From positions 1 through 64,000 of IMG/VR virus record IMGVR_UViG_3300023179_000029: a stretch of DNA of 64,000 bases, one strand, 5' to 3'. The translations under genes and the position numbers were made by a program. This document shows positions 14,259-18,282 of this stretch, one piece after another. The DNA is from a virus. Positions within the stretch are counted from its first letter, which is position 1. The number at the start of each line of letters is the position of its first letter. Below the pieces are notes generated by a model. It was not told the origin of the DNA and did no database searches. It worked only from the letters and a program-made list of their open reading frames with translations.

Positions 14259-14694
14259 GAAATTGAAGCGTATACTTATAATAGTTATAAGTTTTTGCTG
14301 TGCGGCGTTTATGACAATTTGCGCATACTACTTCGCATTTGTCAATTTCTTCTAAAATACGTTCAAATGTATATCCTTGCATTATCATCTCTGATACATT
14401 TTTGAATTTGTCTCTTTGATGATCAAACTCAAGTACTATTATATCAGATTCATTGCAGTCAACGCAAGGGTGATTTTTTAAATACTCAACAACCTTGCTT
14501 TGACTATTGCCAATGTTTGCATTTTTGCGTTTTAAAATATCTTGTTTATGTTTCTCTCTATTTTCTGCGTAATATTGTCTAGACCTAGCCCGATTGCATT
14601 CACGACATACATTTTGTTTTCCATCGGGGCGACTAGTTTTTTTATTATACTCAGAAAGCGGTTTTTCTTGTTTGCAAAGTGTGCATTGTTTCAT
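14245..14694 (-). CDS. HNH endonuclease with N-terminal Zn finger
   Basis: KQCTLCKQEK..CREC finger and HPCVDC..VLEFDH..KCEVVCANCH nuclease; likely start ATG 14694; stop codon lies inside tRNA-Lys. Confidence 0.9.
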   Translation of the reverse strand: MKQCTLCKQEKPLSEYNKKTSRPDGKQNVCRECNRARSRQYYAENREKHKQDILKRKNANIGNSQSKVVEYLKNHPCVDCNESDIIVLEFDHQRDKFKNVSEMIMQGYTFERILEEIDKCEVVCANCHKRRTAKTYNYYKYTLQFRGCS

Positions 14695-14733: not shown

Positions 14734-14772
14734 ATTAAAAGTCCGCTACTCTACCAATTGAGTTACAAGGGC
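14734..14772 (-). pseudogene. 5' fragment of disrupted tRNA-Lys(TTT)
   Basis: GCCCTTG TA ACTC AATTGGTA GAGT A GCGGA CTTTTAA T: acceptor, perfect D-arm and anticodon loop, then an abrupt stop. Confidence 0.88.
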
Positions 14773-14790
14773 GAGCAGAGATATGATAGC

Positions 14791-14819
14791 AAAGCCCGGA
14801 CCATGTTTCAAGTCCGGGC
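14791..14819 (-). terminator. Intrinsic terminator after the holin, abutting an extended -10 (TGcTATCAT)
   Basis: GCCCGGAC/GTCCGGGC stem followed by TTT. Confidence 0.65.
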
Positions 14820-14844
14820 CAAGCCAAGATAGGATCACCTCAAG

Positions 14845-15051
14845 TTAGTTCTTTGGGGGAAGTGCTGAACGAATACCAACTGCTGATGCAAACGCAATAA
14901 TGGTAGTGAGAATCTTCTGTGCCGATGAAGTGGCCGAACCGCCAAGAACACCAGACTGAATGATGAATGTAGCGGCGCCAACAAAAATACCATAAGCAAA
15001 TGATACTTGAGCCTTTGTAAGATGACGGAGCCAATTAATAAACTTTGTCAT
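14845..15051 (-). CDS. Holin (putative)
   Basis: 68 aa with two hydrophobic segments and a basic tail; strong AAAGGAGG RBS; near the endolysin. Confidence 0.65.
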   Translation of the reverse strand: MTKFINWLRHLTKAQVSFAYGIFVGAATFIIQSGVLGGSATSSAQKILTTIIAFASAVGIRSALPPKN

Positions 15052-15085
15052 ATTACCTCCTTTCAGTTATTACTTGTCGCAATCA

Positions 15086-15158
15086 TGCCATGGACAGGGT
15101 TCGAACCTGTATAAAACCGATTATGAGTCGGGCGCCTAAACCATTCAGCCACCATGGC
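15086..15158 (-). tRNA. tRNA with CAT anticodon (elongator Met or lysidine-Ile2)
   Basis: GCCATGG/CCATGGC acceptor, CCCGA-CTCATAA-TCGGT anticodon arm. Confidence 0.88.
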
Positions 15159-15161
15159 CTA

Positions 15162-15234
15162 TAGTCCCGCCGGGATTTGAACCCAGAATACGACTTTATA
15201 AGAATCGCGTGTTTACCACTTACACCACGGGACA
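15162..15234 (-). tRNA. tRNA-Ile(TAT)
   Basis: CGATT-CTTATAA-AGTCG anticodon arm, GTGT/ACAC D-stem, CTGGGTTCAAATCCCGG T-arm; U1.U72 mismatch, A73. Confidence 0.82.
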
Positions 15235-15317: not shown

Positions 15318-16706
15318 TTATACCAGATAATTCATGTCACAATTGCCGATGCCCTTAGCCGACTTAGGGCTAAGAACACCTGTTGTGCCATCTGTGTATT
15401 GGCAAGCCCAAAGATGGGGTTTAGCAATAGCCGGAACAGTAGTTTCAGGTTTAGCAGTATAAGCAGCATGCCAATAACGAAGGGGCTTACCTTTATGATC
15501 TTTGGGCCACTTAGTTACGGTACCGGGGAGGTACCAGCCGCCACTATAAATAACGCGAACAGTATAACCTAAACGCCATGCTTCAGTAATAAAGTCTGCA
15601 ATCCACTTATCGCCGTTTTTATTTTGAAACTTGGGATCCTCCCAATCAAGAACAAGTCGATCATCAGGATTAAGCTTGCCAGCGGCCTTAATAGCATCAG
15701 TGAAATTCTTTGCCTCTTGCTGAGGGGTATTATTACTTGGACGGGCAAAATGATAAATAAAACGAGTAAGCCCAATGCGACCAGCTTCGCGAAAACGAGC
15801 TTGAAATGCAGAATCCTTAAATGTGCGACCTTCGCTAGCTTTTAATACAATAAGTGGATAACCGCCAGATTTATATTGTGAAAGGTTTACTGTCCTCTGA
15901 CCTTCGTAACAGTCCGCAAAATACTTAGCATTAGGATTCTTAGGCTTGGTAGGAGGCTTAGGTGTTGGCTTAACAGGGGGCTTGACTGGAGCAGGAGTTG
16001 GCTTAGAAGGCTTTACCGGAGGCTTGGGATTAACGGGGGGCTTAGGAGTAGGTTTAGACTTAACAGGGCCGTTAAGAGCCTTCCAAGTGCCGGGACCGAC
16101 AATTCCATCGGCAGTGAGTTTATAATCCTTCTGGAATTTCTTTACTTGACGAGTAGTTAGGGCGCCAAAACCATTATTGTTAATTGGGTATACGGCGGGC
16201 CAATAACCATGCTTTTTAAGGAGCTTCTTAAGAGTTACGCAATAACCATTTTTATCACCCTGCTGAATAGTAGGTTCGACCTTGTACTTATCAACGGCTG
16301 AATAATGGCCTTCCTTCCACTTGAAATGCCAAGGCTCAGAAGGAGCATCACTCCATGACTTTGACCAACCAAAATCCTTGCCGTAATTAGCAATAAGCCT
16401 TTGGGTCTGATAAGGAACGTCAAGAGCAAGACCCAATCCGTGATTAGAAGTGCCGGGACGCGCTGCAAGGTTGCCGCCGTTTTGGTAACGCTCCCAAGCG
16501 GCCCATTGGCTCCAACGATTAGCTCGCCAATCGCCGGGCTTACCGAGCGGACGATAAGAATCATTAACCTCTACGGTTTGACCGTGCTTTTCTTTTACAT
16601 AACGAGCAAAAGCATTCCAAGCATCAGCGGCGTCATGACGAAGGCGGCCACCGCCAGCAATATTAGTTAATTCGCTGTTTTTAAGTTGTCCGTTAGCACT
16701 CATCAC
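15318..16706 (-). CDS. Endolysin: M15/VanY-like peptidase, PG-binding domain, Pro/Lys linker, GH25 muramidase
   Basis: SYR..PGTSNHGLGLALD..EPWH; VKKFQ..L.ADGIVGPGTW; LKASEG..YHFARP..VLDWE..QYT..CDMN. Confidence 0.92.
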   Translation of the reverse strand: MMSANGQLKNSELTNIAGGGRLRHDAADAWNAFARYVKEKHGQTVEVNDSYRPLGKPGDWRANRWSQWAAWERYQNGGNLAARPGTSNHGLGLALDVPYQTQRLIANYGKDFGWSKSWSDAPSEPWHFKWKEGHYSAVDKYKVEPTIQQGDKNGYCVTLKKLLKKHGYWPAVYPINNNGFGALTTRQVKKFQKDYKLTADGIVGPGTWKALNGPVKSKPTPKPPVNPKPPVKPSKPTPAPVKPPVKPTPKPPTKPKNPNAKYFADCYEGQRTVNLSQYKSGGYPLIVLKASEGRTFKDSAFQARFREAGRIGLTRFIYHFARPSNNTPQQEAKNFTDAIKAAGKLNPDDRLVLDWEDPKFQNKNGDKWIADFITEAWRLGYTVRVIYSGGWYLPGTVTKWPKDHKGKPLRYWHAAYTAKPETTVPAIAKPHLWACQYTDGTTGVLSPKSAKGIGNCDMNYLV

Positions 16707-17461: not shown

Positions 17462-17501
17462 ATGTATACACATTATACCACACTCTAATGTGATTTTCAA
17501 G

Positions 17502-17573: not shown

Positions 17574-17598
17574 AAGTTTTGTCATTATATCATATTTA

Positions 17599-17670
17599 CT
17601 GGTCCGGTAGGATTCGAACCTACAACCGTCGCCTTAACAGGGCGCTGCACTGCCATTGTGCTACGGACCA
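17599..17670 (-). tRNA. tRNA-Asn(GTT)
   Basis: TGGTCCG/CGGACCA acceptor, CGCC-CTGTTAA-GGCG anticodon arm; 5' end overlaps the HNH stop. Confidence 0.92.
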
Positions 17671-18020
17671 ATGGTGGTAATACCATTTTCAACTTCTCTA
17701 TGGCAATTGGCACATAATAGCACACATTTATTAGCCTCTTCAAGAAGTTTATCAAATGATTTACTTAATCCTTTTTGACCTAAACCAAAATTTTTGTCAT
17801 TAGGATCAATATGATGAAACTCAAGGGCCGCTGAACATTTGTCGTATTTACAAATTTGACATTTGCCCCCAAAATGAGAAACTAATTTCAATTTGTTTTT
17901 ACGACGCTGCTCGGCAACTCTATCTTGTCTACATTGTTTGCATCTGTAATAACCACGACCCTCCAGAACAAATTCTGTTAGGCCGTGGTGTTTACATTCT
18001 TTTGTAATATATTTTTTCAC
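17661..18020 (-). CDS. HNH endonuclease
   Basis: CKHHG..RCKQC finger; GGKCQICKY..ALEFHHIDP..KCVLLCANCHRE. Confidence 0.9.
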   Translation of the reverse strand: MKKYITKECKHHGLTEFVLEGRGYYRCKQCRQDRVAEQRRKNKLKLVSHFGGKCQICKYDKCSAALEFHHIDPNDKNFGLGQKGLSKSFDKLLEEANKCVLLCANCHREVENGITTIGP

Positions 18021-18065
18021 ATATATTATATGTCGGTATATTACAAAATGTTATACCGAAGAAGG

Positions 18066-18188
18066 TGAGTCGCCAATGCTTTTCCGCTTGCACATAGTAG
18101 ATCATCGCCTATTGATTAATTCTACTTTTTCATCAATAGGTTAGGCGGTTTCATTATTATTTATACCGATAATAATGGGCGACTCAAC
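18066..18188 (-). ncRNA. Candidate structured ncRNA with pseudoknot
   Basis: Three perfect 9-bp helices, a 4-bp helix and a 6-bp loop pseudoknot; TGtTATAAT promoter at 18193-18201. Confidence 0.6.
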
Positions 18189-18209
18189 ACTCATTATAAC
18201 AGATTTTTA

Positions 18210-18282
18210 TGGGCGGTGCAAGGCTCGAACTTGCGACCTACTCGGTGTAAACGAGTTGCTCTCCCAACTGAGCTAACCGCCC
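18210..18282 (-). tRNA. tRNA-Val(TAC)
   Basis: GGGCGGT/ACCGCCC acceptor, ACTCG-TTTACAC-CGAGT. Confidence 0.95.

Follow-up and report, generated by a model that had tools for sequence, protein, structure and literature searches.

A predicted RNA of about 120 nucleotides with two pseudoknots in the tRNA gene arrays of uncultured phages

Results

An RNA gene on the tRNA strand

The window, as we call the whole 64,000-nucleotide stretch of DNA that was analysed, belongs to a 127,398-base record of an uncultured virus and carries twelve tRNA genes, none of which is followed by CCA. A first-pass annotation had flagged a structured element among these genes. The element reads sensibly on the minus strand, from 18186 to 18066, the strand of 12/12 window tRNA genes, and the RNA that it would encode is single-copy in the record. 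The features of the locus are listed below in the direction of that strand; pair changes and paired cells refer to the alignment of ten distinct sequences described further on.

18210..18282, minus strand: tRNA-Val, the upstream neighbour in the window.
18201-18193, minus strand: extended -10-like element TGTTATAAT, 6 nt before P1, a putative promoter element.
18066..18186, minus strand: RNA gene, ~121 nt from the first to the last P1 base; matched by covariance model R1 with 150.2 bits.
18186-18178/18074-18066, minus strand: P1, terminal helix of 9 bp; 5/9 pairs changed on both sides, 95.6% of cells paired.
18152..18177, minus strand: P2, hairpin of 9 bp (arms 18177-18169/18160-18152); 97.8% paired.
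18161-18168, minus strand: P2 loop, 8 nt, the most variable unpaired part of the RNA.
18148-18145/18087-18084, minus strand: P3, CCGC/GCGG, its 5' strand inside the invariant block UGAAACCGCCUAA; the same in 10/10 distinct sequences.
18108..18140, minus strand: P4, hairpin of 9 bp with a 15-nt loop (arms 18140-18132/18116-18108); 5/9 pairs changed on both sides, 100% paired.
18126-18121/18101-18096, minus strand: PK1, 6 bp between AGUAGA in the P4 loop and UCUACU; 3/6 pairs changed on both sides, 100% paired.
18076..18093, minus strand: P5, hairpin of 4 bp (arms 18093-18090/18079-18076); 2/4 pairs changed on both sides.
18033..18059, minus strand: inverted repeat that separates the RNA from HNH2, with arms of TCGGTATA; it belongs to an insert rather than to the RNA family and is lacking in the relatives.
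17661..18020, minus strand: HNH2 gene (HNH_2, 17 bits, below the cut-off of 21).
17598..17671, minus strand: tRNA-Asn, beyond the HNH2 insert.

The four helices P1 to P4 that the first-pass annotation had drawn are all present where it had placed them, as is the complementarity of the 6-bp pseudoknot that it had proposed from the P4 loop, and three of the six PK1 pairs covary. The list missed P5, however, and P3 belongs to a second pseudoknot rather than being a nested helix. The P5 loop of 10 nt, AAGCGGAAAA, contains the 3' strand of P3 (18087-18084), so that P3 and P5 together make up this H-type pseudoknot. The block GCAAGCGGAAAAGC lies between the 3' strand of PK1 and the 3' strand of P1. 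The strands follow one another in the order P1-P2-P2'-P3-P4-PK1-P4'-PK1'-P5-P3'-P5'-P1'; no nucleotide separates P1 from P2 and a single one separates P5 from P1, which measures 7-9 bp, and the helices meet in a four-way junction. The folding energy of the 133-nt stretch is -36.5 kcal/mol, against -22.2 +/- 3.6 kcal/mol for 200 shuffled versions (z = -3.96), none of which folded as well. The absence of an open reading frame, also noted in the first-pass annotation, holds throughout the family: stop codons fall in all six frames of each of the ten distinct members, with no open stretch longer than 25 codons.

Relatives of the RNA form three lineages

Homologues were reached by way of the ribonucleotide reductase (RNR) gene that lies 4 kb upstream of the RNA. 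Thirteen IMG/VR loci encode relatives of this RNR; the top three, L034, L035 and L036 (85-87% identity), carry the RNA at 75-82% nucleotide identity, and the other ten are without it. A covariance model, R1, was built from these three copies and that of the window with a given structure that included P5, and it scores 137-158 bits on its four sources and at most 14.5 bits elsewhere. A metagenome scan for a pattern of two invariant blocks returned 39 loci, ten of which pass R1 with E <= 6e-34, two of these being contigs of L035 and L036 again. In total the family comprises 12 copies, representing 10 distinct sequences, from 11 related loci of uncultured phages and the window. They fall into three lineages that are 68-75% alike.

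Lineage A: seven sequences, 94-98% alike; the commonest lineage.
Lineage B: the window copy, 73-74% identical to lineage A.
Lineage C: L034 and L054/L064, 93% alike and 68-75% identical to the others.

Other searches added no copies. Neither blastn of the RNA against 50,697 phage records, which gave no match, nor a 5.3-kb context query against the phage records, which matched tRNAs and nothing else, revealed a relative; five exact or degenerate pattern scans of IMG/VR yielded the three known relatives and chance matches only, and none of the 14 loci from a scan of genome contigs passes R1. The RNA was not found in the whole records of four more distant phages, nor in phage records with 73% and 67% RNR identity. 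Several candidates were rejected: L048 is a GC-rich stretch without tRNAs, the site in L094 falls inside an ORF of 615 aa, 25 loci from one IMG/VR pattern scan are missing the 5' half, L134 and L135 gave no match, and the remaining 29 metagenome loci are GC-rich chance matches. These 29 include a group of nine related GC-rich loci (L057, L067, L071, L072, L073, L074, L079, L081 and L082) that shows both motif blocks at the spacing of the RNA and is otherwise unlike it; there was no Rfam match in the four members tested and no R1 match in the two tested, and the group probably reflects a chance resemblance that is to be counted once. As seen by word-based scans the family is narrow, with 10 distinct sequences in three lineages, and distant relatives may have been missed since such scans require exact words.

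Five helices covary around a nearly invariant core

The 41 pairs and 10 distinct sequences give 410 pair cells, 98.3% of which hold standard pairs, and 16/41 pairs have changed on both sides (29 cells). None of 500 shuffles matched the observed proportion of paired cells, the numbers of double changes or the covariation score, although these shuffle counts are not probabilities because three lineages represent few independent events. The count of further pair types was equalled by 134/500 shuffles and is not an exceptional measure. When partners were slid by 1-3 columns as a control, pairing dropped to 30-44%.

The exchanges also point to one strand. P2 shows one pair in nine changed on both sides together with five one-sided G-U exchanges, and its many exchanges among G-U, A-U and G-C are compatible only with the minus strand as RNA; the G-U exchanges in P1 and P2 alike fit the tRNA strand only. 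P3 is invariant in all ten sequences, and its pairing is read from complementarity rather than covariation. RNAalifold predicts P1, P2, P4 and P5 on alignment A4, a result that is not an independent check since A4 had been fitted to the R1 structure, P5 included.

Of the 32 unpaired columns that lie outside the P2 loop, 26 are invariant; among paired columns the figure is 40 of 82, so that the junctions are under tighter constraint than the helices. The core is predicted to consist of two H-type pseudoknots, P4+PK1 and P3+P5, with unpaired nucleotides that are almost invariant, and an A-rich strand (AAAA; GUAA in lineage C) appears to be placed so as to cross the groove of P3. As judged from its conservation, the flagged stretch is a genuine non-coding RNA gene of about 120 bases that is predicted to fold into two knots.

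The RNA matches no known family

No Rfam family matches the RNA at the gathering score in a search of the whole window. At E <= 10, one copy from each of the three lineages gave sub-threshold noise only, with no family common to the lineages: rliF (15.6 bits), bablM (17.7), snoMe28S (15.8), K10_TLS (12.8), CRISPR-DR53 (16) and Gut-1 (11.9). The window copy accounts for the rliF match, on the other strand, and besides this matched only the cut tRNA-Val. ARAGORN called a tRNA or tmRNA in 0/12 copies at default and lowered thresholds and gave inconsistent calls in its mitochondrial mode, and the Rfam tRNA model does not match the RNA. The first-pass annotation, which had seen no T-loop and no known consensus and had suggested an Infernal search of Rfam, is borne out by these results, Y RNA and tmRNA included.

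Individual candidates were set aside for specific reasons. A tRNA or tmRNA is contradicted by the lack of T-loop, D-loop and anticodon loop. Among the ribozymes, twister, pistol, hatchet, hammerhead and the other Rfam families are without a match at E <= 10 in the three lineages, a search that permuted forms would escape. An HDV-like or theta identity is contradicted by a strand order that is not the nested P1-P2-P3-P3'-P1'-P4-P4'-P2' and by the lack of an Rfam HDV-like match; the placement typical of theta ribozymes, within +/-5 nt of a tRNA 3' end, is seen in 11/11 relatives and not in the window copy. A bacterial Y RNA was rejected for want of an Rfam match and because a TROVE search of the 127-kb record, of which the completeness is 79%, gave nothing; genes for Ro60/TROVE, the CCA-adding enzyme and RtcB were not found in the same record. 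A riboswitch or cis-regulatory leader was rejected since the downstream gene is a tRNA in 11/11 relatives and an ORF in the window alone. The RNA is not described in the literature searched, motif strings included, and the supplement to PMC10690425, with 8495 IMG/VR candidates, may hold it. These searches place the RNA in no Rfam family and suggest a new RNA family in a known kind of locus.

Relatives place the RNA between tRNA genes

In all 11 related loci the RNA lies between tRNA genes and on their strand, with P1 starting 1-2 nt past the 3' end that ARAGORN assigns to the preceding tRNA. The next tRNA begins 2-5 nt past P1 in 6/11 loci, and in the other 5/11 a spacer of 39-109 nt precedes tRNA-Met. 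The bases past P1 are neither conserved nor CCA.

L034, L036, L056 and L069: P1, then tRNA-Asn after 2 nt.
L054 and L064: P1, then tRNA-Glu after 5 nt.
L035, L090, L058 and L065: P1, then a 39-40-nt spacer, then tRNA-Met.
L091: P1, then a 109-nt spacer, then tRNA-Met.

A Leu anticodon is found in every tRNA that precedes the RNA, yet these tRNAs differ in sequence and fall into four kinds, no more than 67% alike: a long CAA form, a short CAA form of 75-76 nt, and two long UAG forms (examples are L034:16062-16145, L035:15489-15572, L036:10569-10653, L054:1384-1465, L056:1070-1144 and L065:931-1005). Within lineage A the upstream tRNA has been exchanged while the RNA stayed 94-98% identical. The constancy of the Leu anticodon across four tRNAs hints at a link to that tRNA.

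The first-pass annotation had offered a novel phage RNA of the tRNA cluster as one possible reading of the element, and this reading fares well: the fold is kept in three lineages, belongs to no Rfam family and lies between tRNAs in 11/11 related loci. Its proposal to compare co-occurrence with the tRNA cluster and with the HNH gene gives a clear answer, the RNA being in a tRNA cluster in 11/11 of these loci and adjoining an HNH gene in 0/11.

HNH2 lies in an insert at the edge of the RNA gene

Relative to L034, L036, L056 and L069, tRNA-Asn of the window is displaced from the RNA by an insert of about 394 nt, which contains a hairpin, a promoter-like site and HNH2, whose frame ends in a TAG inside the first tRNA-Asn bases (17661-17671). 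No ORF of any kind adjoins the RNA in the 11 related loci, so that HNH2 is an insertion specific to this genome. When the 11 loci were searched by tblastn with HNH1 and HNH2, only L091 matched, beyond its tRNA-Met. Conversely, the RNA is absent from all 32 IMG/VR loci that encode HNH2 relatives (blastn, nhmmer), and a covariance-model scan of 14 of these found it in 0/14. The suggestion that the RNA is a partner or regulator of the HNH protein is therefore not upheld. HNH2 is best described as a mobile cassette inserted beside the RNA gene and not as a conserved partner; as far as genomic context can tell, the RNA serves the HNH nuclease neither as a guide nor as a partner or leader.

In the window, 45 nt separate the RNA from the start of HNH2, and no intrinsic terminator was called after the RNA, so it may there double as the 5' portion of the HNH2 mRNA. 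The sequence TCGGTATA occurs three times within 137 nt, at 18033-18040 (plus strand), 18052-18059 (minus strand) and 18162-18169 (minus strand), the sites being both arms of the pre-HNH2 hairpin and the P2 loop of the window's copy of the RNA only. There are five copies in the window, where 1.23 would be expected, and 1/100 shuffles reaches five. The P2 loop of the window copy could pair with the 3' arm of the pre-HNH2 hairpin.

A -10-like element takes the place of the upstream tRNA

The window lacks the tRNA that lies directly upstream of the RNA in the relatives. Positions 18238-18192 correspond to L034 15838-15884 with 87% identity, a match that covers the segment after tRNA-Val and includes the -10-like element, and L034 then has about 260 nt more before the RNA, holding a small ORF and tRNA-Leu. 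The ORF appears hydrophobic and, by eye, lies before tRNA-Leu at about 15890-16057 in L034 and 15400-15485 in L035, between the promoter-like site and that tRNA; the window is without it. In L034 a complete tRNA-Val is also followed, at 15820-15866, by an incomplete second copy of its 3' half.

The first-pass annotation had given the RNA a promoter of its own, like those before the tRNAs. A -10-like element does lie 6 nt before P1, but TGTTATAAT occurs once in the window, where 1.58 occurrences are expected by chance, and a consensus scan calls no promoter at 18201-18193 because the -35 hexamer fits just 3/6 positions. The same scan calls TTGAAA-17-TATAAT, with a TG, before tRNA-Met (17500..17472). 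Since the relatives have a tRNA at the position of the -10 element, an own promoter would be confined to this genome.

By eye, the same 9-mer recurs elsewhere in the family. In lineage A the sequence of the P2 loop is TGTTATAAT, which makes a perfect extended -10 and is identical to the sequence before P1 in the window (L036:10672-10680; L035 and L065 likewise), and the 39-40-nt spacer before tRNA-Met reads TTGAAA-17-TGTTATAAT. The lineage A P2 loop may be an internal promoter for the downstream tRNAs.

Discussion

In precursors of CCA-less tRNAs, an RNase Z-type enzyme classically cleaves behind the discriminator base, and the 5' end of each tRNA is generated by RNase P. We consider it probable, though by no means assured, that the RNA described here is a stand-alone structured RNA of the phage tRNA operon, a passenger released from the tRNA transcript by the tRNA-processing enzymes. 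It would be co-transcribed with the tRNAs, its 5' end being made by an RNase Z-type cut after the upstream CCA-less tRNA and its 3' end either by the RNase P cut at the next tRNA or by a 3' exonuclease trimming back to P1, the helix that would join and protect both ends. An RNA lying between close tRNAs would in this way be freed by their processing cuts and would need no signal of its own, and the looser 3' side of the RNA is as expected if exonucleases trim to P1. In the window copy, the -10 element would replace the missing upstream tRNA, with transcription from about the first P1 base: the last -10 base is 18193, and a start 7 nt on would fall at 18186, the first base of P1. We infer that in 12/12 copies the first P1 base lies within a few nucleotides of an event that makes a 5' end, namely 11 tRNA cuts and one predicted start. 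In this genome the HNH2 cassette would have been inserted between the RNA and tRNA-Asn. Once released, the RNA would most likely work in trans, using its invariant knotted core to bind a protein or a small ligand.

The constant Leu anticodon of the upstream tRNA is not predicted by a pure passenger model, and together with the tight 5' adjacency it keeps alive two alternatives, a tRNA-like decoy and a ribozyme. The first of these, an enlarged tRNA mimic that would act as a decoy for a tRNA-directed host factor or defence nuclease, possibly one that targets tRNA-Leu, is unlikely. Here P1 would stand for the acceptor stem and P5 for the T arm, P2 and P4 would occupy the places of the D and anticodon arms, the pairing of the P5 loop with P3 would replace the elbow, and the molecule would enter tRNA pathways such as RNase P cleavage and CCA addition. 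The RNA does resemble a tRNA in its position within a tRNA array, always behind a Leu-anticodon tRNA even though that tRNA has been exchanged, in its cloverleaf-like helix order and four-way junction, and in the spacing and length of its terminal helix. It differs from a tRNA in its 121 nt, in lacking T-, D- and anticodon loops, in bases after P1 that are neither conserved nor CCA, and in passing unrecognized by ARAGORN, in all 12 copies at lowered thresholds, and by the Rfam tRNA model; moreover, the L-shape of the mimic is itself conjectural.

Rather more doubtful is the proposal that the core is a catalytic or a ligand- or protein-binding centre of a new class, whether in a ribozyme that trims the Leu-anticodon tRNA or, less boldly, in a decoy for a tRNA-Leu factor. 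We rate lower still, as improbable, the specific case of a new class of self-cleaving ribozyme that would cut at or near its own 5' end and thereby free the 3' end of the CCA-less tRNA. This case draws on the start of the RNA 1-2 nt past a CCA-less tRNA in 11/11 relatives (the 3' side is not always near a tRNA), on the core of two pseudoknots with near-invariant junction nucleotides, and on two known ribozymes. Theta ribozymes, which are minimal HDV-like ribozymes, lie within +/-5 nt of phage tRNA 3' ends, only 4.5% of those tRNAs encode CCA, and their proposed role is to free the tRNA 3' end (PMC10879173). The likeness to our RNA, a pseudoknotted RNA a few nucleotides from the 3' end of CCA-less phage tRNAs, is one of placement; the RNA is not a nested HDV double pseudoknot, is ~120 nt long, and in the window has no tRNA in front. 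In pistol ribozymes, which are associated with phage genes, a hairpin loop forms a 6-bp pseudoknot with a strand leading into the next hairpin (PMC6154101), and the pairing of the P4 loop with a strand before P5 recalls this arrangement. The 5' strand of the pistol closing helix comes after the first hairpin, however, whereas that of our RNA comes before it, and the G-U junction of pistol is not kept between P5 and P1. Thus the strand order is unlike that of HDV/theta, twister and pistol, no Rfam ribozyme family was detected at E <= 10 in the three lineages, and the window copy, with no tRNA in front, keeps all 41 pairs and the whole core. Additionally, the RNase Z and RNase P of the host would already carry out this processing.

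A role of the RNA as a cis-acting leader, regulator or RNA partner of HNH2 is very improbable. The short distance to HNH2 with no terminator between, and the presence of TCGGTATA in the window P2 loop as in both arms of the pre-HNH2 hairpin, speak for such a role, but none of the 11 homologues adjoins an HNH gene, the HNH2 relatives are without the RNA, and the P2 loop is the one unconserved part of the RNA, so that any link to HNH2 would be a local, secondary adaptation. Least probable of all is a DNA-level or remnant element without RNA function, such as an internal promoter, the target site of a homing endonuclease, or the decayed remains of a tRNA or intron, in spite of the extended -10 in the lineage A P2 loop and of an HNH cassette inserted exactly at the 3' edge of the RNA, since compensatory and G-U exchanges in five helices, the pseudoknot included, indicate selection on RNA pairing of one strand and would not be needed by a promoter or a nuclease site.

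An RNA of the tRNA operon, the reading that we prefer, would have company in phage biology. In T4, RNAC (species 1, 139 nt) and RNAD (species 2, 119 nt), as annotated, are encoded on the tRNA strand of the tRNA cluster, 1 nt behind tRNA-Arg, and the homing endonuclease gene segB is part of the same cluster. Both RNAs are expressed and their role is unknown (PMC3014915, PMC9697503). R1 scores at most 7.5 bits on the T4 region, with two 32-nt matches in rnaC of 6.1 and 4.6 bits, and the 3' end of rnaC looks T-arm-like by eye, whereas the window RNA has no T arm; the likeness to RNAC and RNAD is one of position only, not of sequence or structure. A survey of IMG/VR, the collection from which the window comes, predicted 8495 candidate structured RNAs, some of them tRNA-like, and passages of its main text do not describe this RNA (PMC10690425).

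Phage tRNA clusters have thus held unexplained small RNAs since RNAC and RNAD of T4. The compact fold, strong covariation, two pseudoknots and near-invariant unpaired core of the present RNA form a pattern that is usual for specific binders or catalysts, and at ~120 nt the molecule is small enough for direct tests. Furthermore, its setting suggests that tRNA arrays can act as platforms for the expression and processing of other RNAs, and the window illustrates, cleanly and in a natural setting, how a homing HNH cassette can land at the edge of an RNA gene without a link to the RNA.

Two tRNAs encountered in this work deserve mention. The short CAA tRNA of 75-76 nt (L056:1070-1144, L058:413-487, L065:931-1005, L069:1851-1926 and L091:1582-1657) has a class-I-type variable loop, which is unusual for a leucine tRNA. 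In L042, a more distant phage with 29 tRNA genes, ARAGORN reports a tRNA with the anticodon TTA at 14336-14406, which reads a stop codon, and a tmRNA at 14744-15194.
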